IMG/VR virus record: IMGVR_UViG_3300020057_000496
Span: 102,853 to 166,852 of that record
Length of the DNA stretch: 64,000 nt
Origin: a virus
Direction: 5' to 3' (one strand)
Below, piece by piece: positions 200 to 32,755 of this stretch (the stretch's first letter is position 1; each line of letters starts with the position of its first letter). Under the pieces are notes generated by a model. The model did not search any database, was not told where the DNA came from, and was given only the letters and a program-made list of their open reading frames with translations. A program made the translations under genes and the position numbers.

Positions 200-785
200 G
201 CCACTCAATATTGCAACGATGAAGCTCCCGGCCGATGTGCTGGAGTTCGGGCTTACCCTTAGAAAACTAAGGACGGCTGCTGGGCTTACCTGTCAGCACG
301 TTGCTGACGCTGGCTGGGTCCGTGAGGCTTCGGTCCGGAAGATGGAAGCGGGAATGAAACTCCCGGCAGCACCGTCCACCCTGCGGATGATCGAAAGGGA
401 ATTGAACTGTAAGCCGGAGTACTTAGTTTCACTAGCAGAGCAACACCGGAAGTATCTGGCTCAGTTCATTGAACTCTTTAGCTCTACCCTGATCGAGTTA
501 CATGACCTTCTCAGGTTTTACCAACCGGACGAAGCCGAGAAGGTTCTTTTACAGATTGTGAATACTTGGAAATTTCAAAGAAAGGAGGAGCAAACAGTAA
601 TGAAGTCAACGGCAACCCCACGTCCGCTCGTAGCCCCGAAGGCTGCGCCGACGCGCAAGACGACCACGAAGTCCGCGCCTGCACGACGCAGCACGACAAT
701 GGCCACGGCGAAGACCGCAGCGAAGACCGCAGCGAAGACCGCAACGAAGACCGCACTGAATCTCGCACTGAAGCGCAGCAAGTAA
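180..785 (+). CDS. XRE-family HTH protein with a C-terminal basic, histone H1-like K/A/T/P tail
   Basis: FGLTLRKLRTAAGLT..VADAG..SVRKMEAG is XRE-like; tail contains AKTA repeats. Confidence 0.65.
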   Translation: MKKSLDKPLNIATMKLPADVLEFGLTLRKLRTAAGLTCQHVADAGWVREASVRKMEAGMKLPAAPSTLRMIERELNCKPEYLVSLAEQHRKYLAQFIELFSSTLIELHDLLRFYQPDEAEKVLLQIVNTWKFQRKEEQTVMKSTATPRPLVAPKAAPTRKTTTKSAPARRSTTMATAKTAAKTAAKTATKTALNLALKRSK

Positions 786-1147
786 AGTCCAGTCAAGACG
801 CGGACACGGACCAGAAATGGGACTGTGTCCGCGTCTCCAGCCCCGCCGGTAAGTGGTACCTGTCGAGGGACGACGACATAGAGCGCCTGTCCGTCAGGGC
901 CGACGGAACACGGCGGGCAGTTTTCTCTCGTGACGAACTAGTAAGGATCAACGGCGGGCTTAAGTCCGCAAATAAGGAAGAGCGCCAAGAGTTACTTCGT
1001 TGTCTGATAGACCTGAAAGAAGTAATTGGAGGAAAGGTTCAGTCAGTTAGCAATCGAAGTATCGACACCTTAAAGAATTCCGTGAGGTCCCACGCGGATT
1101 GGGGATATCAGGACGCCCTTGGCGACGATCCGACAGACCCTACTTAG
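566..1147 (+). CDS. hypothetical protein overlapping the upstream gene by 220 nt
   Basis: 193-aa ORF; C-terminal half looks globular and fills the otherwise empty 786-1147; TTG start uncertain. Confidence 0.45.
   Translation: MEISKKGGANSNEVNGNPTSARSPEGCADAQDDHEVRACTTQHDNGHGEDRSEDRSEDRNEDRTESRTEAQQVKSSQDADTDQKWDCVRVSSPAGKWYLSRDDDIERLSVRADGTRRAVFSRDELVRINGGLKSANKEERQELLRCLIDLKEVIGGKVQSVSNRSIDTLKNSVRSHADWGYQDALGDDPTDPT
708..754 (+). repeat. 12-bp tandem repeat GCGAAGACCGCA, about 4 copies
   Basis: Seen directly; encodes AKTA in one frame and EDRS in the other. Confidence 0.85.
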
Positions 1148-1175
1148 CTCAGCGGCTAGAGCACCGGTTTGGCCG
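1138..1175 (+). ncRNA. tRNA 5'-half-like fragment (D arm present, no T arm)
   Basis: CCCTACT-TA-GCTC-AGCGGCTA-GAGC-ACCGGTTTGG resembles tRNA positions 1-36. Confidence 0.45.
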
Positions 1176-1220
1176 TCGGCAACGCGCGAATGCCTATAAC
1201 GTCATCACGATTCGCGACTA

Positions 1221-1294
1221 GGCTCCCGTAGTTCAAGAAGGTAGGGCACCGGATTATCATCCGGGGATGCATGTGCAAGTCGTGCCGGGAGCCC
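1221..1294 (+). tRNA. tRNA-like element with a 6-nt anticodon loop (Glu/Asp-like body)
   Basis: GGCTCCCG/CGGGAGCC acceptor, GTTC/GGGC D stem, CCGGA-TTATCA-TCCGG arm, GCATG-TGCAAGT-CGTGC T arm. Confidence 0.65.
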
Positions 1295-1298
1295 TCTT

Positions 1299-1364
1299 GC
1301 TGCCCGTAGCTCAATTGGTGGGCGCCATCGGCGCCAGGTGCGGGTTCGAATCCCGTCGGGCGGT
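1299..1364 (+). tRNA. tRNA-like element with a collapsed anticodon arm (3-nt loop)
   Basis: GCTGCCCG/CGGGCGGT acceptor, TAGCTCAATTGGTGGGC D arm, GCC-ATC-GGC arm, GCGGG-TTCGAAT-CCCGT T arm. Confidence 0.7.
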
Positions 1365-1580
1365 ATTGTGTTGTATTTTTTACGAACAAGTACTTTTCTG
1401 AATACCACCAGGGATAGACGGAATCGGTCGCCACGGCACTGCTATGGCGACCCTTCGCTCGTTGGGAAATTCAAATACGTCCAACGCCGTGAATGCAATC
1501 TTGCGTTCTCCCCGAATGGTCAGCGAGTTCACGTCCGACAGCTCGCTAAGTTCAGGGCCAGAACTTTAAGGGTAAAATAA

Positions 1581-2438
1581 ATGAAGGTAGTCGTTACTCG
1601 CGGATTGCCTGGCTCTGGGAAGTCGTGTTTCGCAAAGGAACTGATAGACTCCGACAAGAGCTACGTACGCGTCAACCGGGACGAGATACGCCTGACACTC
1701 TATAACGGAAAGTTTTCTGCGAAGAACGAAGAGCTTACGACTGCCGTTCGGGACTCCATGATTGACGCCGCGCTCCTCTCCGGTCGCAACGTCGTCGTGG
1801 ACGAAACTGCGCTGTCCCCGTCGGTCATGGCGACACTCAAGCTTAAGGCAGAGGCACACGGGGCGGAATTCGAAATCAAGGAATTCAACAAGCCGTACGA
1901 AGACTGCATCCGTGACGACTTGACTCGCGCCAATCCAGTCGGCCACAAGGTGATTACGAGGATGTACCTGAAGTACATCAAGCCAAAAGAAAAGAAGCTC
2001 TATGAACAGACTGAAGGACTACCTTCCGCTATCCTCGTGGATATCGACGGCACGGTCGCAAATTGCGATTCCCGCTCTCCGTTTGACACGAATGCTTGTT
2101 TACAGGACAGACCTAATAATCATGTTATTAGCGCGGTGGTTTCATTAAGCCGTGATCACCGAGTCTTTTTTATAACCGGACGAGACGAGCGCTTCCGAGA
2201 AAAGACCACTACTTGGATCAAGCGGCACGTCTTCCCTGGCGACTACTGGTTTAAGTTACACATGCGCGCGGACGCCGACAAGCGCAAGGACTACGAAGTC
2301 AAGGAAGAGATTATCGTCAACGAGATCATAGGGCGCTATAACGTCCTCGTATGCTTCGAGGACCGTCCGCGCAATCTCAGGATGATGCGCCGACTCGGCT
2401 TGTCTACAATGGACTGCGGACTGGGGTTTGAATTCTAA
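1581..2438 (+). CDS. pseT: polynucleotide 5'-kinase/3'-phosphatase (T4 PseT-like)
   Basis: P-loop GLPGSGKS, NRDEIR motif, HAD motif DIDGT, FEDR. Confidence 0.93.
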   Translation: MKVVVTRGLPGSGKSCFAKELIDSDKSYVRVNRDEIRLTLYNGKFSAKNEELTTAVRDSMIDAALLSGRNVVVDETALSPSVMATLKLKAEAHGAEFEIKEFNKPYEDCIRDDLTRANPVGHKVITRMYLKYIKPKEKKLYEQTEGLPSAILVDIDGTVANCDSRSPFDTNACLQDRPNNHVISAVVSLSRDHRVFFITGRDERFREKTTTWIKRHVFPGDYWFKLHMRADADKRKDYEVKEEIIVNEIIGRYNVLVCFEDRPRNLRMMRRLGLSTMDCGLGFEF

Positions 2439-3508
2439 TGGACTGCCATCTCCAGGACTATCTACGTAACGGCGGATCGCTTACTAATCTCGAAGAAGTA
2501 CTTCGCGTCAAGCACAAGCGGCACGGGACATATCCAAACCTCTTACTGTTCTCTTACTCTATCGGCTGTTCGTTCGAATTCCCACTACAGTTAGAGTCAC
2601 GCGGAATCATTCTCGACGAACAAGACGACTGGCGCGTAGTCAGTCGCAGCTTTGACAAATTCTTCAACCTCGGCGAAGGCAGGGCCACAGCTATCGACTG
2701 GGCCAGTATAGTAGTAAACGAAAAGCAAGACGGCTCGCTCGTGAGTGTATATAGACACAACGGAAACTTGCAATTCGCGACTACGGGGACACCGGACGCC
2801 AACTGCCCAATTGGCGACTATCAGGTGACGTTCGCGGAATTGTTCCGGCAGACGCTGCAAGAGCTTAGCCTCTGGCCACTTCCGGAGATGCCCGGCGTAA
2901 CTCTCTTGTTCGAGTTGTGCACGCCGCTGAATAGGGTCGTCGTCAACTCCTTGACGAATAAGGTGTTCTTTCTTGGGGCAAGAGAAGCCGAGACTGGATG
3001 CTGGCTATCTAATGACCTACCGGAGTTCAGTCACCTCCCAAAGCCACGCATATTTTCATTTCGAACACGAGAAGAAGTGCTGGCCTCACTCGAACATTTC
3101 AGTGGGCTCCATCAAGAAGGTTACGTCGTTACCGACGCTAATTACAACAGAGTAAAGATCAAGCACCCCGAATACGTCCAGTTACACCACTCGGTTTTTG
3201 GTACGACTTATTCGAGCATCGTCGAGCTTGCCCTAAAGCAGGAGTCATCCGAGATCCTAGCTCATTTCCCGGACTTAACAAAGCTGCTCAAGGACACTGA
3301 GCAGAAGATCATAAGCCTCTGTGTAACAGTCGAGAATACCTACGCCGAAATTAAAGACCTGACTACGCGTCGGGAGTTTGCACAGAGGGCGAAGTTCTAT
3401 AAGTATTCGGCCGTTCTATTTAAAATGCTAGACAAGAAGCTGTGCGCCCTGGAGGTCCTGAGACTGGAACGAATTAAGACCGTAATTGAATACCTCAAGG
3501 AGAACTAA
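2438..3508 (+). CDS. RNA ligase 1 (T4 RnlA-like)
   Basis: SRGIILD, RSFDKFFN, motif I EKQDGS, FE, QEGYV, RVKIK; translationally coupled to PNK. Confidence 0.9.
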   Translation: MDCHLQDYLRNGGSLTNLEEVLRVKHKRHGTYPNLLLFSYSIGCSFEFPLQLESRGIILDEQDDWRVVSRSFDKFFNLGEGRATAIDWASIVVNEKQDGSLVSVYRHNGNLQFATTGTPDANCPIGDYQVTFAELFRQTLQELSLWPLPEMPGVTLLFELCTPLNRVVVNSLTNKVFFLGAREAETGCWLSNDLPEFSHLPKPRIFSFRTREEVLASLEHFSGLHQEGYVVTDANYNRVKIKHPEYVQLHHSVFGTTYSSIVELALKQESSEILAHFPDLTKLLKDTEQKIISLCVTVENTYAEIKDLTTRREFAQRAKFYKYSAVLFKMLDKKLCALEVLRLERIKTVIEYLKEN

Positions 3509-4014
3509 TGGAAGAGAACAATCGGTCTATATATCTACAGCGTAAAGACGGTCTCTTTGTTGTAAAATTCTTCCGTCAAAAGCATGAATACTACGTTGGG
3601 GCCTTCAAGGATATCAACGTAGCCCGTGTCGAACGGGACAGGGCGTACCTAAAGCTGAAGTGCGGGGATCTTTCCGGAATCAAGGTTCGCGAGTCCGTAA
3701 AGCGCAAAGTCTTCTCCGAAGAGCAGTGGTACAAGCAGTACCTGGAGTACCCGTTATATATGGATACTCCGCAGTATAAGCTCCGTTATGCCGTATTAAT
3801 TTCGGCGTTACGGGATTTCTGCGATACCGCTCGGATAGGCAAGTACACAAAGGCCCAACACTGGATCATGGAATCGTCACATCCGGACGACACCTTCTCC
3901 TTCGTCAATGTCTGCGAACTCTTCCATCTCAGCCCTGCGGCGGTAAGAAAGCAACTAAATGGACTTAATCAAAAGCAAAAGCAAGCACTCAAGTCGTATA
4001 CGATCTTTAACTAA
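3508..4014 (+). CDS. putative DNA-binding protein: AP2-like N-terminus plus helical C-terminal domain
   Basis: YYVGAFKDINVARVERDRAYLKL is AP2-like; AVLISALRDF...AQHWI...FSFVNVCELFHLSPAAVR in the C-terminus. Confidence 0.6.
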   Translation: MEENNRSIYLQRKDGLFVVKFFRQKHEYYVGAFKDINVARVERDRAYLKLKCGDLSGIKVRESVKRKVFSEEQWYKQYLEYPLYMDTPQYKLRYAVLISALRDFCDTARIGKYTKAQHWIMESSHPDDTFSFVNVCELFHLSPAAVRKQLNGLNQKQKQALKSYTIFN

Positions 4015-4282
4015 GACACAGAATCTTATTGTTAAAGAATGCGACTCTATACGTGATCTTCTATTAGAAAAAAACCGTAGTTACGGCGATTCATTTTCAA
4101 GGCCAATTGGAATATTCGCTGCCGGTCACGATGCCGATGTGCAAATTAGGGTCCGAATTGATGACAAGCTGGCCCGCATCTCGCGCGGAACTGAGTATTC
4201 AAATGAAGACACGATCACGGACCTTATTGGATACTTGATATTATTGCGCCTCCTTGTAAACGTGAAAAAGAAAAAACATTAG
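3959..4282 (+). CDS. nucleotide-modification-associated domain 1 (DUF1599/Nmad1-like) protein
   Basis: LLEKNRSYGDS, VRIDDKLARI, EDTITDLIGYLIL. Confidence 0.8.
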   Translation: MDLIKSKSKHSSRIRSLTKTQNLIVKECDSIRDLLLEKNRSYGDSFSRPIGIFAAGHDADVQIRVRIDDKLARISRGTEYSNEDTITDLIGYLILLRLLVNVKKKKH

Positions 4283-4288
4283 TATCTC

Positions 4289-4437
4289 GTGCAGTACATG
4301 GGCGGCAAGGTCAGGTTAATTAAAAGATCAGCAAGCGAGCTTCCGTAATTGCGTCCTTCCCGCACAAAACTGAAATGCGTACTCCAACTTCGAAAAATCA
4401 AACAAGTAGAGTCGAGAACCTGTATCTCGTAAGGTAG
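4289..4437 (+). pseudogene. internally deleted Dam-like (D12 class) DNA adenine methyltransferase remnant
   Basis: GTG-start MQYMGGKVR (typical N-terminus), followed by a segment ending ...SRVENLYLVR* (typical C-terminus); the middle is missing. Confidence 0.5.
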
Positions 4438-4447
4438 GCAAAATTTA

Positions 4448-5422
4448 ATGAGCAATAGCACACATGACGTCGTAGTATACAAACTAGGTCCCGTTACCGA
4501 GCACCCGGCCGCCGACCAAATCGAGATCCACCACGTCTGGAATTACGTCTGCATCTCCCAGAAGGGTCTCTATAAAGAAGGAGACTTAGTTGCGTTTATT
4601 CCGCCGGACAACGTCGTCCCAGACATCGAACAGTACGCCTGGCTAAGTGGCAAGCGGCGAATTAGGGCAAAGAAGATTCGTGGCATAGTGTCGTACGGGT
4701 TGCTGGTCGCCGCACCGGAAGGTTCGATTGAAGGGGACGTAGTCACTGAGCAGCTCGGAGTCGCACATTACGAGCCGCCAATATTAACATCCAATGGAGG
4801 TGGTTTCAGTCAGGCTAAGCCACCGCCCGGCTACTATGCCAAGTACGACATAGATTCCCTTCAGCGATACGCGGACTGCCTTGAGCCGGGCGAGGAAGTA
4901 TGGATTACCGAAAAGCTCCACGGATGTTGCTTTTCTGCGATCTATATCGACGGAGCCCTGCACGTCCAGTCACATAATTTCTGGCGCAAGGAGGACGACG
5001 ACAACGTATTCTGGCCGGCACTCCGGAACACTCCGGGCCTAGCGGAGTGGCTAGAAGAGCATCCGGGAACTCTACTACAGGGAGAAGTAGTCCCGACCGC
5101 ACGTGTCGCCAAGACAGTCTTCGACTACGGGTACACCTGGGGGACTCCGCGAGTCGTGTTGTTCGATATGTCCCAAGACGGTTCTTACTTCTCACACGAG
5201 GTGGCGCGAGGACTTAGCAAGGACCTGACTTGGGTGCCTACTATTGGCCGCGAGGCGTTCTCGTTGGAGCGAGCGGAGGAGCTGACAACTGGGCCGAGTC
5301 TTATGCCAGGTGCAAATCATCTCAGAGAGGGCCTTGTTCTCACGCCGGTCAATGAGCGCATGCACGACCGCATAGGACGAATTAAACTAAAGCTCGTATC
5401 GCACAAGTACCTAGAACTTTAA
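4448..5422 (+). CDS. ATP-dependent RNA ligase, DRB0094 (Rnl5-like) family
   Basis: N-terminal OB-like HPAADQIE..IPPD..IRGIVSYGL; motifs TEKLHG, GE, FD, REGLV, KLKLV. Confidence 0.88.
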   Translation: MSNSTHDVVVYKLGPVTEHPAADQIEIHHVWNYVCISQKGLYKEGDLVAFIPPDNVVPDIEQYAWLSGKRRIRAKKIRGIVSYGLLVAAPEGSIEGDVVTEQLGVAHYEPPILTSNGGGFSQAKPPPGYYAKYDIDSLQRYADCLEPGEEVWITEKLHGCCFSAIYIDGALHVQSHNFWRKEDDDNVFWPALRNTPGLAEWLEEHPGTLLQGEVVPTARVAKTVFDYGYTWGTPRVVLFDMSQDGSYFSHEVARGLSKDLTWVPTIGREAFSLERAEELTTGPSLMPGANHLREGLVLTPVNERMHDRIGRIKLKLVSHKYLEL

Positions 5423-5458
5423 TAGCCCGCAACACGCCTGACGGCGCCTGGGGATACT

Positions 5459-5779
5459 ATGACGAAAAAGATAAAATTCCTTATCGAAGTTGAATACGTA
5501 CTGGATAAATGGGACCCGAAACAGAAAGACAAGGACTGGATTCCGGACTACGCCCTTGACCTCCGTGAGCGCTGTGACATGGTGATTGAATTCCCATGTA
5601 GCGAAGTAATGGACGCCGGGCGCGAGCTAGGCCACACCGGTGCGACCTATGACTATCTCGACGTCAGTTACTGTCGCGACCTGGGCTACCCCTCGAAGAT
5701 CAAGGTTCGCCGTGTTAAGACCCCAGCGCCGCGCCGTAAGCCAACGCCCGGGGTGGCAAAGCGTAAGGCCAAGAATTAA
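5459..5779 (+). CDS. hypothetical protein
   Basis: 106-aa ORF in operon context. Confidence 0.6.
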   Translation: MTKKIKFLIEVEYVLDKWDPKQKDKDWIPDYALDLRERCDMVIEFPCSEVMDAGRELGHTGATYDYLDVSYCRDLGYPSKIKVRRVKTPAPRRKPTPGVAKRKAKN

Positions 5780-5780
5780 C

Positions 5781-6206
5781 GTGATCTTTCTCGGTGGAAC
5801 TTGCGGCAACAACGACTGGCGCAATCGTCTCTTTACGGACTTAAATAGGGCGCAAGTAAATACGGACAACCTCTACAACCCAGTAGTGCCCGACTGGACT
5901 TCTGTCGCACAGGCAAGCGAAGAGAAGGCAAAGGCGAGTGCTGAGTATTGTGTTTTCTATATTGCCAACCCTCGCTTAGATGGCGTCAATATTTCTGCTT
6001 TCTCAATGGTTGAGGCAACGATGGCACTCTACGACAGTCCAGACACGACTGTCGTGGTGTTCGACGAAGACGGGATAGAAGGACACGTACTTAAGGCGAT
6101 GCAGCGGACACGTCAGGTTCTACAGGCTCGATTCCCTACCGTCGAGTTCTTGAGTTCGTATCAAGCACTAGTAGATTACTTGATCGTAATGGCAGTCAAG
6201 AACTAA
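5781..6206 (+). CDS. nucleoside 2-deoxyribosyltransferase-like protein
   Basis: IFLGGTCGNNDWR, YNPVVPDW, FSMVE; GTG start at 5781 within the 5640 ORF. Confidence 0.75.
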   Translation: MIFLGGTCGNNDWRNRLFTDLNRAQVNTDNLYNPVVPDWTSVAQASEEKAKASAEYCVFYIANPRLDGVNISAFSMVEATMALYDSPDTTVVVFDEDGIEGHVLKAMQRTRQVLQARFPTVEFLSSYQALVDYLIVMAVKN

Positions 6207-7363
6207 TGCCGACGTTGCTCTTTAAGAAGGGTTCGAATGGGAAAATTATCCAGTGGCGAAACTGGGTAATTGGTGCCGAACTCCAGACCGAACACGGCCA
6301 AGTCGGAGGCAAGTTGCAGCTTACCTCTGAGGTGTTTTTCGCAGGGAAGAATATCGCCAAGTCAAACGCGACCACGGCCGAAGAGCAGGCCGAGCTGGAG
6401 GCGCAGGCGCGCTGGACGAAGAAGAAGAAATCCGGCTATGTCGTTTCACTAACAGAAGCTAGAGCTGGCGGACGTGACGTGGTGATCCAGGGGGGCGTTG
6501 ACCCGATGTTGGCACAGTCTTACTCGAAACACGCCGCAAAGATCAAGTGGCCGGCTTACAGTCAACCCAAACTCGACGGAATTAGATGTCTGGCGTTACT
6601 CACCGAAAAAGGTGACGTAACGCTGTGGTCACGGACTCGAAAGCCTATCAAGTCGATGCCTCACGTGATCAAGGCGCTCAAGGGCCTGCACGTCAAGGCA
6701 GGTACCGTCCTGGACGGCGAGTTATATTCGCATGCGGCCTGGAATGCTGTCGCCGACGAAGCCGAGGACTCGGAGTCGGCCCATAAAGTCTTGTTCGAAA
6801 AGATAACAAGCCTGGTGCGTCCGCTTGAGCCAGTACCGGGCCACGAAATTATGGAATACCACGTCTACGACATGTGTGTAGATCTACCTTTCGAACAACG
6901 ACATTGGAATTTAGCCAGGCTACTAAGGAAGGCAACCCTGCCGCTCGTCCTAGTCGAGACCTTACATTGCGAGTCCGAGCCCGACGGCGTGTCTCACTAC
7001 GGGGACTGTCTTACGCGTGGTTACGAGGGTGCGATGTTCAGGAATGCCGACTCAACCTACGAATTCGGCAAGCGCAGTTATTCGCTCCAGAAGGTCAAGC
7101 AGTTCGATGACGCCGAATACGAGATTACCGGAGTAATGGAAGGGCGTGGTAAACTTGCCGGGTGTGCGGGCTCCATGGAGTGCAGGTTGCCGAACGGAGG
7201 GGTGTTCAATGTCAAGATGAAGGGCTCCTTCGAAAGATTGCGGGAGTTCTTCCAGCATCCGCCGGTGGGAAAACTACTCACGGTGCAGTACCAAAACTTA
7301 ACGGCAGCCGGTGTACCTAGATTCCCCATTGGACTAAAGATTCTACAGGACAAGGACTACTAA
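6206..7363 (+). CDS. ATP-dependent DNA ligase with N-terminal WGR-like domain
   Basis: PMLA, QPKLDGIR, LDGELY, YEGAMFR, KRS, OB-fold VPRFP. Confidence 0.93.
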   Translation: MPTLLFKKGSNGKIIQWRNWVIGAELQTEHGQVGGKLQLTSEVFFAGKNIAKSNATTAEEQAELEAQARWTKKKKSGYVVSLTEARAGGRDVVIQGGVDPMLAQSYSKHAAKIKWPAYSQPKLDGIRCLALLTEKGDVTLWSRTRKPIKSMPHVIKALKGLHVKAGTVLDGELYSHAAWNAVADEAEDSESAHKVLFEKITSLVRPLEPVPGHEIMEYHVYDMCVDLPFEQRHWNLARLLRKATLPLVLVETLHCESEPDGVSHYGDCLTRGYEGAMFRNADSTYEFGKRSYSLQKVKQFDDAEYEITGVMEGRGKLAGCAGSMECRLPNGGVFNVKMKGSFERLREFFQHPPVGKLLTVQYQNLTAAGVPRFPIGLKILQDKDY

Positions 7364-7464
7364 AGCGACATTAGTCTTTATATCCATAGCTGGCGGTAAG
7401 TACTGTGCTAGACATCTCGCCAGACTTTGTCTCTAACTAGCAGAATTAAGCAAGGAAAACGGTA

Positions 7465-7908
7465 ATGCGAACTAAGATTAAATTCCCAATTGGTGACTGG
7501 TCAGATGATGGCCACGGCAGGTGTGACTGGTACATGGCTAGCACCACGATGACGGTCGAGGACGTCAGAGAGGCACATTTTGCTTGTAAAAATAAGTTCG
7601 GGTTCGATATCGGTGAGATCTGTTCCCAGTACGGAGAGACGACTATCGACTCCGATTTAGCTAAGAAGATTTCCGCCGTAGTTCCACTAGGTGATTATGC
7701 GTACGGCGCAGAAGGAAGTGGCGAATATACCTTTGAGTACAATACTGAGGCCGTTTTTGCGCTATGGATTGCTATCTTAAATAAGTCTAACCTAGATTTA
7801 GATTTAGTCACAGAAGAAGTAGCGATTGAAGCTATTCAGTTCAGCGGCCACGACTCGCTAGGGAGACATATAGTCGTACCGGGCTACGGAGTGTTCGGGG
7901 AAGCCTAG
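7465..7908 (+). CDS. hypothetical phage protein
   Basis: AAGGA RBS; IGDWSDDGHG...GYG motif recurrent in phage proteins. Confidence 0.7.
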   Translation: MRTKIKFPIGDWSDDGHGRCDWYMASTTMTVEDVREAHFACKNKFGFDIGEICSQYGETTIDSDLAKKISAVVPLGDYAYGAEGSGEYTFEYNTEAVFALWIAILNKSNLDLDLVTEEVAIEAIQFSGHDSLGRHIVVPGYGVFGEA

Positions 7909-8111
7909 TGGACTGCCAGGGGTGCTTCAAGCCAACGAAGGAGTACGGACCTATCTGTCCTGAATGCAACCCACTACTGTTCGAAATGATCAAAGCTGGT
8001 GCGGACATAGGCGGGGTAGAGTACCGCTGGTCTGTACTCTGTCCCGCCTGCGTTCATCTCCATAAACAGGAACATGCCCTCAGCCGAGCGGGGCCTGACA
8101 TCGAACTTTAG
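7908..8111 (+). CDS. small Cys-rich (zinc-finger-like) protein
   Basis: Three CxxC pairs; coupled start. Confidence 0.5.
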   Translation: MDCQGCFKPTKEYGPICPECNPLLFEMIKAGADIGGVEYRWSVLCPACVHLHKQEHALSRAGPDIEL

Positions 8112-8187
8112 GCCACAACGCAAAGAGGCCACCCGGAGGCGACCTTTCTACAGGCATACGATTTCAGCGTTGCCCTTTACTGAGAGT

Positions 8188-8262
8188 AGAAATGGACAGG
8201 ATTCGAACCTGCATCAATACCGTAATATGGTACCAGCCTTGACCAATTAGGCTACCATTTCT
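8188..8262 (-). tRNA. tRNA-like element, nominal anticodon ATT, non-canonical arm
   Basis: AGAAATGG/CCATTTCT acceptor, GCCT/AGGC D stem, GTACC-ATATTAC-GGTAT, GCAGG-TTCGAAT-CCTGT. Confidence 0.7.
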
Positions 8263-8269
8263 ATCCAAG

Positions 8270-8340
8270 TCGGACCGGCAGGAGTTAAACCTGCGTCCTG
8301 GGAGCGACCCAGTGCTCTGGTCGCTAGAGCTACGGTCCGA
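8270..8340 (-). tRNA. tRNA-like element with a 5-nt anticodon loop
   Basis: TCGGACCG/CGGTCCGA, GCTC/GAGC D stem, CTGGG-TCGCT-CCCAG, GCAGG-TTTAACT-CCTGC. Confidence 0.7.
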
Positions 8341-8344
8341 AAAG

Positions 8345-8417
8345 CTGGCAGGGCACGACTTGAACGTGCATTTCCTGGTAACAGGCCCAGGGTCCTTTCT
8401 TTTAGATGACCTGCCAG
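8345..8417 (-). tRNA. tRNA-like element with an 8-nt anticodon loop (Asn GTT-like)
   Basis: CTGGCAGG/CCTGCCAG, CCTGG-GCCTGTTA-CCAGG, GCACG-TTCAAGT-CGTGC. Confidence 0.65.
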
Positions 8418-8426
8418 ACAAAGCGA

Positions 8427-8488
8427 GGCGACACCGGCGTTTCACCGAGACCTTTCGGCCTTGTCCCTCTCTAGAACTGTAGCCTGCC
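8427..8488 (-). ncRNA. highly diverged tRNA-like element with a GAAA-tetraloop hairpin in place of the anticodon arm
   Basis: GGCAGGC...GTCGCC ends, GGCC-GAAA-GGTC hairpin, TCGG-TGAAACG-CCGG T-arm-like. Confidence 0.4.
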
Positions 8489-8498
8489 GACACTCTAA

Positions 8499-8580
8499 CT
8501 TCGGCAGCATGAGTCGAACATGCACCACTTTCTTTCTTCTTTTTAAGAAAGAATCGCTCTACCGTTGAGCTATACCGGAG
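8499..8580 (-). tRNA. tRNA-like element with an elongated U/A-rich anticodon arm
   Basis: CTCCGGTA/TGCCGAAG, TAGCTCAACGGTAGAGC, TTCTTTCTT-AAAAAG-AAGAAAGAA, GCATG-TTCGACT-CATGC. Confidence 0.7.
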
Positions 8581-8587
8581 CAAGGAC

Positions 8588-8616
8588 AGATTGGCCGTTT
8601 CTTAACAGAAAGTCAA
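8588..8616 (-). promoter_or_regulatory. putative sigma70 promoter for the - strand tRNA-like cluster
   Basis: TTGACT-N17-CAATCT on the - strand; predicted start about 8581, next to the first tRNA-like 5' end. Confidence 0.55.
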
Positions 8617-8668
8617 CTATTTTATTTCGAACAAACAAAATAAATCATTCGAGCTTTCGGCCACTTGT

Positions 8669-14741: not shown

Positions 14742-14815
14742 GCGCCCGTAGCCCAATTGGAAGAGGCACTTCCCTCAAGAGGAAGTTAGTGTCCGTTCGA
14801 ATCGGACCGGGCGTA
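14742..14815 (+). tRNA. tRNA-Leu(CAA) with a short variable loop
   Basis: GCGCCCG/CGGGCGT, CTTCC-CTCAAGA-GGAAG, GTCCG-TTCGAAT-CGGAC, discriminator A; no encoded CCA. Confidence 0.85.
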
Positions 14816-32725: not shown

Positions 32726-32755
32726 TTGACTTTCCGTCAAGTACTAGTGTAATAT
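32726..32755 (+). promoter_or_regulatory. putative sigma70 promoter of the GT island
   Basis: TTGACT-N18-TAATAT, 7 nt before the ATG (leaderless-like). Confidence 0.55.

Follow-up and report, generated by a model that had tools for sequence, protein, structure and literature searches.

What use could a phage have for genes that keep the body of a transfer RNA (tRNA) and carry anticodon arms with which no codon could be read? The question is raised by a 64,000-nucleotide stretch of DNA (hereafter the window), corresponding to bases 102853-166852 of the 166,852-bp IMG/VR virus record IMGVR_UViG_3300020057_000496, which comes from an uncultured phage and is estimated to be about 87% complete. 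Six tRNA-shaped units lie here in two clusters, at 1222-1364 on the plus strand and at 8188-8579 on the minus strand, with three RNA-repair enzymes encoded between them. All six units have intact acceptor, D and T stems, and none of them (0/6) carries a canonical anticodon arm, that is, a 5-bp stem and a 7-nucleotide loop with U33 and a purine at position 37, set one base after the D stem. Judged from the sequence comparisons presented here, the six units are very probably selected, non-decoding tRNA-shaped RNAs.

The units were sought with ARAGORN, with the Rfam tRNA model RF00005 (gathering score 29 bits) and with a body-only covariance model, R1, which specifies pairs for the acceptor, D and T stems, imposes no structure on the anticodon region and was built from 17 training sequences; since these included all six window units, the R1 scores of the six (52-62 bits) are not independent support. 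A loose scan of our own for acceptor, D and T stems was dropped in favour of the covariance models owing to its excess of chance matches. ARAGORN in its default mode reported three tRNA-like genes across both clusters, while the Rfam model found four units at its gathering score and one more when the search was focused, so that five of the six units reach it (33.1-53.2 bits). The sixth, unit F, was supplied by relaxed ARAGORN and R1 and went unreported by Rfam. When R1 was run over both intergenic regions with its filters off, nothing rose above noise beyond these six, the sole partial match being at 1138-1181.

1222-1293, plus strand: unit B (Rfam tRNA 39.4 bits; ARAGORN 'tRNA-???'; R1 61.6 bits)
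1300-1364, plus strand: unit C, a 65-nucleotide gene (Rfam 33.1 bits; R1 51.9 bits; fold)
8499-8579, minus strand: unit D (Rfam 42.4 bits; R1 55.5 bits; fold z -2.85)
8345-8416, minus strand: unit F (ARAGORN -ps90; R1 57.5 bits; fold z -3.49)
8270-8339, minus strand: unit G (Rfam 38.4 bits; R1 54.6 bits; fold z -3.67)
8188-8261, minus strand: unit H, the highest tRNA match (Rfam 53.2 bits; ARAGORN Asn(att); fold)

Four of the six units adopt the cloverleaf unaided (fold z -2.5 to -3.7). Neighbouring units are separated by spacers of 5-8 nucleotides, no unit encodes its CCA end and none has a G3:U70 pair. An earlier, sequence-only reading of this DNA had proposed two clusters of seven to eight tRNA-like units with well-paired acceptor, D and T arms, to be checked with ARAGORN and covariance models; the clusters and the paired arms were confirmed, whereas the count came down to six.

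Each anticodon arm is odd in its own way, as that reading had held. Unit B has a 5-bp stem with a 6-nucleotide loop, UUAUCA; in unit C the arm is cut down to about 11 nucleotides, with a 3-nucleotide loop on a GGCGCC/GGCGCC palindrome hairpin that competes with the D stem; and in unit D a 9-bp U/A helix with a 6-nucleotide A-rich loop takes its place, next to canonical D and T arms and an acceptor stem with one C/A mismatch. Unit F carries, on a 5-bp stem, the only 8-nucleotide anticodon loop of the set, GCCUGUUA, alongside a weak D arm without GG; an alternative 7-nucleotide loop would have C33 and U37. Frameshift-suppressor tRNAs, by comparison, have a single additional loop nucleotide, read a quadruplet and are normal tRNAs in other respects. 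Unit G combines a 5-bp stem and a 5-nucleotide loop, UCGCU, with a D loop without GG and the T loop UUUAACU. A 7-nucleotide loop is found only in unit H (AUAUUAC, anticodon AUU, hence A34), on a stem that is either shifted, the D and anticodon stems then being two bases apart, or 6 bp long and followed by a 4-nucleotide variable loop, so that the extra spacer base previously described exists under one of these two interpretations. In alignment A3, G53, T54, A58 and C61 are invariant and the D-loop GG is present in B, C, D and H and missing from F and G, while B has G55 (T loop UGCAAGU) and G has U56. The claim that damage is limited to the anticodon arm was somewhat overstated, as F and G are without G18G19 and B and G deviate in the T loop.

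Comparison with other phages was possible at a distance. A search of cultured phages at the nucleotide and protein levels found no close relative of the window phage, and a search of IMG/VR for related loci with the kinase-phosphatase (Pnkp) gave no match. Six distinct phage contigs, hereafter the relatives, were reached through Rnl1-type RNA ligase homologues of about 50% identity; these contigs have in common the gene order primase-helicase, helix-turn-helix (HTH) gene, gap, Pnkp, Rnl1, two small open reading frames (ORFs) and second ligase, followed by further genes, a gap, a Hint-like ORF and NrdJ. The intergenic DNA of the six cannot be aligned to the window and has no detectable similarity to it, and both gaps hold tRNA-shaped genes, 18 in total by Rfam, ARAGORN and R1, so that such clusters bracket Pnkp, Rnl1 and the second ligase in six of six relatives. 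An 8-bp acceptor stem, with position -1 paired to 73, had been read in six units; the pairing is possible in all six and in both other tRNA-shaped genes of the genome (8/8, chance 0.0004), but in the relatives only 8 of 18 units allow it, which is the chance rate.

A set of 25 units from the window and the six relatives, the units being paralogues, was fitted to the model (alignment A4). Cells of the acceptor, D and T stems are paired in 96.7% of cases, compared with about 40% after sliding of the 3' partners, and 15 of the 16 body pairs vary on both sides. A canonical anticodon arm, by the 5-bp stem, 7-nucleotide loop, U33 and purine-37 rule, is carried by 3 of the 25 units, compared with 15 of 20 in the T5 tRNA region under the same model and rule (Fisher p = 3e-5); three of the five T5 failures are annotated tRNA genes with ordinary 7-nucleotide loops (one of them marked as a pseudogene), and the other two are true outliers in T5 stable RNAs. 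Hence the relatives hold mostly remodelled arms, and not canonical tRNAs with mutations spread evenly. The whole genome of the window phage contains eight tRNA-shaped genes, namely the six cluster units, a normal tRNA-Ile(UAU) and a class-I Leu(CAA)-like gene, which puts the non-decoding share at 6/8 here and at about 85% clade-wide. Given that only two other tRNA-shaped genes exist in the genome, the six units do not look like a degenerating decoding set.

Two families among the relatives show how the remodelled arms change. One Lys/Asn-like unit is common to L014 and L018, and between these two its anticodon stem has changed at two pairs, in a compensatory manner. Three relatives (L013:6949-7030, L012:8651-8732 and L010:8196-8298) conserve an 18-nucleotide purine loop, GRAURAGAGGAGAAGAGU, which contains the Shine-Dalgarno-like GAGGAG; its closing stem covaries, and in one copy a 20-nucleotide hairpin is inserted in the loop. 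To judge from these alignments, the remodelled anticodon arms of the relatives are themselves maintained. A scan of viral contigs for the purine loop together with a T arm returned seven chance matches and no tRNA-shaped one, and the available loci contained no complementary target for the purine loops.

Within the strains of the window phage itself, variation was compared among independent assemblies. The window sequence came out of independent assemblies of at least five samples, with 99.5-100% identity, so that it is not an assembly artefact. Among the assemblies of 99.5-99.8% identity there is no position with a single-nucleotide polymorphism (SNP) in 1148-1364, against eight in the equally long adjacent non-coding stretch 1365-1580 (p = 0.004), and likewise none in 8112-8668. 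That the units might be decaying tRNA pseudogenes without function could be argued from a tRNA-half relic ('unit A', described below), from the degraded D loops of F and G and from the failure to find orthologues of individual window units; it is nevertheless highly improbable, because the body stems are paired almost perfectly, strain SNPs are absent from the units while the flanking DNA varies, both slots are filled in all relatives behind a conserved promoter, the remodelled arms show compensatory changes and useless DNA is purged from phage genomes. The same observations speak for the selection of a tRNA body without decoding that had been suggested from the sequence alone.

Further observations concern units of the relatives that carry 7-nucleotide loops. 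U33 is near-universal in tRNA, and the Lys/Asn-type units L014:9289-9360, L017:11464-11534 and L018:7417-7488 have A33 (loops UAUUUAA and UAAUUAA); in these, U32 and A38 can pair, which would give a 6-bp stem and a 5-nucleotide loop. An orthologous pair on the minus strand, L014:9366-9437 and L017:11385-11457, with 77% body identity, has a CUCUAAA loop in one member and a 6-nucleotide CUUGAU loop in the other, the former being canonical, with the amber-suppressor type anticodon CUA.

Four elements next to the units complete the two intergenic regions.

1138-1221, plus strand: 'unit A', a tRNA 5'-half relic (acceptor 5' strand and canonical D arm, then non-tRNA hairpins)
8417-8498, minus strand: spacer 'unit E', 82 nucleotides containing three small hairpins, GAAA closing one of them
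8588-8616, minus strand: promoter of the sigma-70 type serving the minus-strand cluster (TTGACT, 17 nucleotides, CAATCT, a weak -10)
8126-8145, minus strand: terminator-like GC hairpin, then CUUUG, downstream of the minus-strand cluster

The first two of these had been counted as tRNA-like units and are no longer. For 'unit A', the match to R1 with filters off goes no further than the 5' strand of the acceptor and the D arm, at 1138-1181 (8.4 bits, E 0.07), the fold z is -0.66 and the supposed T arm has a stem of 7 bp and an 18-nucleotide loop; the unit shares its first bases with the stop codon of an open frame at 566-1147. The stretch 8417-8498, formerly the unit with a GAAA tetraloop, gives no R1 match with filters off and folds no better than shuffled sequences (z -1.16), and is thus not tRNA-like, although the spacer could be a co-released small RNA. 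A split or nested, intron-like tRNA arrangement was rejected, as inserts here are 0-11 nucleotides and no fitting 3' half for 'unit A' was seen, and so was a mascRNA-like reading (14.2 bits vs 42.5).

The promoter proposed for the minus-strand cluster is not called by a consensus scan, but the motif is conserved: TTGACTTT-N15-TAATCT/TATTCT/TATGAT precedes the minus-strand cluster in the relatives L010, L014, L017 and L018, making five phages with the window, where the predicted promoter ends 7 nucleotides ahead of position -1 of unit D. TTGACTTT occurs in the window at 138-145, 8609-8616 (minus strand) and 32726-32733, about 35-40 nucleotides upstream of transcription-unit starts, and is likely to be an early-promoter -35 element of this phage clade. 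In three relatives the tRNA-shaped genes of the minus strand are followed, likewise on that strand, by an ORF of 96-100 amino acids (L014:8987-9286, L017:10975-11277 and L010:16235-16525, all minus); the window has no such ORF behind its minus-strand cluster, and the terminator-like hairpin stands there.

Between the clusters lie the following genes.

1581-2438, plus strand: Pnkp, polynucleotide kinase-phosphatase (PF13671 and PF25109; phrog_505, 3e-76; P-loop GLPGSGKS; HAD motif DIDGT)
2438-3508, plus strand: Rnl1-type RNA ligase of the T4 gp63 family (PF09511; phrog_562, 5e-51; motif I KQDG at residue 96)
3508-4282, plus strand: two small ORFs of 168 and 107 amino acids (phrog_1485; 36-57% identity over six phages in alignments A6 and A7)
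4448-5422, plus strand: second RNA ligase with an N-terminal OB domain (PF09414 and PF21189; phrog_968; motif I EKLHG, Rnl2/Rnl5-like, KxHG)
5640-7363, plus strand: nucleoside 2-deoxyribosyltransferase-like gene and ATP-dependent DNA ligase (KLDG; PF15891, PF01068, PF14743)

Three RNA-repair enzymes between the clusters, as first read, are thus confirmed by Pfam and phrog matches together with catalytic motifs, and the motifs for healing and sealing are all present (kinase P-loop, HAD DxDxT, ligase KxDG). The two small ORFs have no Pfam match and sit between both RNA ligases throughout the clade. All of this belongs to a replication and nucleotide-metabolism module that occupies the first 12 kb of the window; nearly all genes of the window are on the plus strand.

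Three other features of the genome touch on tRNA or on the same intergenic DNA. The Leu(CAA)-like gene at 14742-14815 (plus strand), called by ARAGORN and below the gathering score in Rfam, has a canonical CUCAAGA loop with anticodon CAA, a 3-bp D stem, a G1-U72 pair and a variable loop that is short where bacterial tRNA-Leu has a long arm. A member of the CCA-adding and poly(A) polymerase family is encoded elsewhere in the phage genome, outside the window (G000:C1:49344-49715, minus strand; PF01743, 37 bits, in a 368-amino-acid frame). The open frame 566-1147 (plus strand), which has no ATG, overlaps the HTH gene (180-785) in another frame, runs 360 nucleotides beyond its stop and ends within 'unit A'; 8 of the 12 strain SNPs in 786-1137 fall at third codon positions of this frame (p = 0.019), and it is probably a real gene overlooked by gene callers, or may be reached via a frameshift from the HTH gene.

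What the units do can be proposed with less confidence than that they are selected. Our explanation as a whole, which is tentative, is that selection keeps the six non-decoding RNAs on account of their tRNA body, comprising the acceptor stem, the T arm and, for the most part, the D arm, and that they act as tRNA-body mimics. Host RNA polymerase would transcribe the units early, the minus-strand cluster from its own conserved sigma-70-type promoter and the plus-strand cluster probably together with the HTH gene and the repair operon. RNase P and 3' nucleases may then separate the closely spaced units, and since CCA is not encoded, it would have to be added by the host enzyme or by the CCA-adding-like enzyme of the phage; early sigma-70-type transcription, spacers of 5-8 nucleotides and the lack of an encoded CCA would fit such a route of RNase P cleavage, 3' trimming and CCA addition. 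Because the anticodon arms are of the wrong geometry, the RNAs would be unable to pair with codons on the ribosome and would serve as mimics of the tRNA body instead, occupying host, and possibly phage, proteins that read the tRNA acceptor and elbow. The likeliest targets would be parts of tRNA-directed defence or stress responses, and such mimicry would complement the healing and sealing of cut tRNAs by Pnkp and Rnl1. That the six units act as competitors or decoys, as had been suggested with anticodon nucleases, toxins or sensors as the targets, is possible and somewhat doubtful; competition for factors reading the acceptor and elbow is more plausible than bait for readers of the anticodon loop. 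It is rather unlikely that the clusters and the intervening enzymes form one counter-defence module, in which decoys made early would absorb the host's effectors or sensors of tRNA-directed abortive infection, and real tRNAs that are cut all the same would be mended by Pnkp, Rnl1, the second ligase and the CCA enzyme.

Several points weigh against this explanation. Units F and G, without G18G19, have weakened elbows, and bait for anticodon-loop readers of the PrrC kind is unlikely because the loops are unlike one another and unlike those of real anticodons. The Rnl1 of the phage itself might also be hampered by competition from tRNA bodies, and the linkage of the clusters to the repair genes may be plain synteny of the whole module in one clade. 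No one-to-one orthologue of any window unit was found, the 60-70% body identity to all relatives being generic tRNA similarity, and consequently the covariation is seen only at the family level, as in any tRNA set.

The remodelled arm, and not the body, might be the working part, with the tRNA body as a chassis that provides folding, RNase P/Z processing and nuclease resistance for a displayed protein-binding helix, aptamer or antisense loop. The 18-nucleotide purine loop conserved in three relatives, with its compensatory closing stem and the copy bearing a 20-nucleotide hairpin, would suit this, as would the 9-bp helix of unit D, which has a related purine strand; that family, however, has no copy in the window, most window loops are 3-8 nucleotides and too short for an aptamer, and the available loci hold no complementary target for the purine loop; we consider a display function unlikely. 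Still less probable is a role as cofactors or substrates of the phage RNA-repair or CCA enzymes. Ligases of the T4 Rnl1 type recognise tRNA-shaped substrates (established for T4 Rnl1), and in all six relatives the clusters bracket Pnkp, Rnl1 and the second ligase. There is also a precedent in the tRNA-like Y RNAs (YrlA), which work with Ro/Rsr beside RtcB operons (PMC7824862) and, like the window units, are non-decoding RNAs with a tRNA-like module next to RNA-repair ligase genes (rtcBA). A Y RNA/Ro reading was nevertheless rejected, as the window units are without the Ro-binding helix (RF02553 15.8 bits vs a gathering score of 69, E 2.5), the 166.8-kb record, at about 87% completeness, gives no TROVE/Ro match (PF05731), and the ligases here are ATP-dependent Rnl types instead of RtcB. 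More generally, the whole replication and repair module is syntenic, which makes adjacency a weak argument, and three further Rnl1 loci (one phage, two bacterial) have no tRNA-shaped gene within 10 kb, so that a general linkage of Rnl1 to such genes was also discarded.

A further alternative, of a kind put forward for tRNAs of T5 and of mycobacteriophages, is that these are nuclease-escape tRNAs which still decode, their loops having been mutated so as to evade the anticodon nucleases of the host. Lys/Asn-type loops of 7 nucleotides are found in unit H and in similar units of the relatives (CUAUUAA, UAUUUAA, UAAUUAA), the changes lie at positions 32-34, where enzymes of the PrrC type cut, and loop or stem substitutions are documented as escape (PMC10264068, PMC12409363). 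Against this, loops of 3, 5, 6 or 8 nucleotides or a 9-bp stem give five of the six window units a geometry that does not decode; in unit H, A34 goes with a stem that is shifted or 6 bp long, A33 occurs in several relatives, and the discriminator bases misfit Lys or Asn identity. For the set as a whole this origin is therefore very unlikely, although unit H and its Lys/Asn-like relatives may be nuclease-escape tRNAs, which leaves the other five units unexplained. The T5 tRNA-Lys, tRNA-Thr and tRNA-Asn that escape the PARIS effector AriB resemble the window units in being phage tRNA genes with anticodon stem-loops unlike those of the host, yet they keep the canonical 7-nucleotide loop and decode, which most window units cannot (PMC12409363, PMC10264068). 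The same literature on PARIS raises the possibility that viral tRNAs compete with host tRNAs for immune effectors (PMC12409363, PMC10264068).

The nearest counterparts of the window units are found in the tRNA regions of well-studied phages. T4 encodes the tRNA-like species 1 and 2 RNAs (rnaC and rnaD), and to our knowledge the non-decoding tRNA look-alikes of T4 and T5 have been annotated for decades without an assigned function; in the T5 tRNA region, RNA1, RNA2 and RNA3 are annotated as 'tRNA-like stable RNAs with unknown functions'. Like the window units, these are small, non-decoding, partly tRNA-like products of phage tRNA-cluster genes, and R1 finds a match with an aberrant anticodon arm inside T5 RNA1 (L026:10513-10581, 21.7 bits). 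Another R1 match with an aberrant anticodon arm lies inside T5 RNAX (L026:21433-21504). Unlike the T5 and T4 RNAs, which are a minority beside 8-25 real tRNAs, the window units come from a clade where most tRNA-shaped genes are of this kind; they are compact (65-81 nucleotides), have a full cloverleaf body and adjoin RNA-repair genes. The likeness shown is one of shape and not of sequence. The best reading of the window units is as a variant of these tRNA-like stable RNAs, and the literature that we searched contains no account of clusters dominated by non-decoding tRNA-shaped RNAs, nor of a function for them. With respect to the enzymes, the window has the same pair, Pnkp and Rnl1, with intact motifs, that carries out T4 repair against PrrC, and goes beyond T4 in the second, KxHG ligase, the ATP-dependent DNA ligase and the flanking tRNA-shaped genes.

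The tRNA is a main battleground between bacteria and phages, on which PrrC, RloC, PARIS, retron effectors, Cas13 and Schlafens act and to which phages are known to answer with repair enzymes and nuclease-resistant decoding tRNAs. The locus described here adds a clade in which non-decoding RNAs are the majority of the tRNA-shaped genes, under purifying selection and with their own conserved promoter, and it offers, in about 450 nucleotides, a compact system in which to ask what use the tRNA body alone can have, as well as a small, conserved unit for experiment that runs from promoter to terminator. If the units are decoys or scaffolds, they would add an arm of RNA mimicry to phage counter-defence and supply natural designs of tRNA scaffolds. 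Were the counter-defence module to prove true, tRNA mimicry would be an RNA-based form of anti-defence comparable to the RNA anti-CRISPRs, which mimic CRISPR repeats (PMC10651486), and it would be widespread in large phages.

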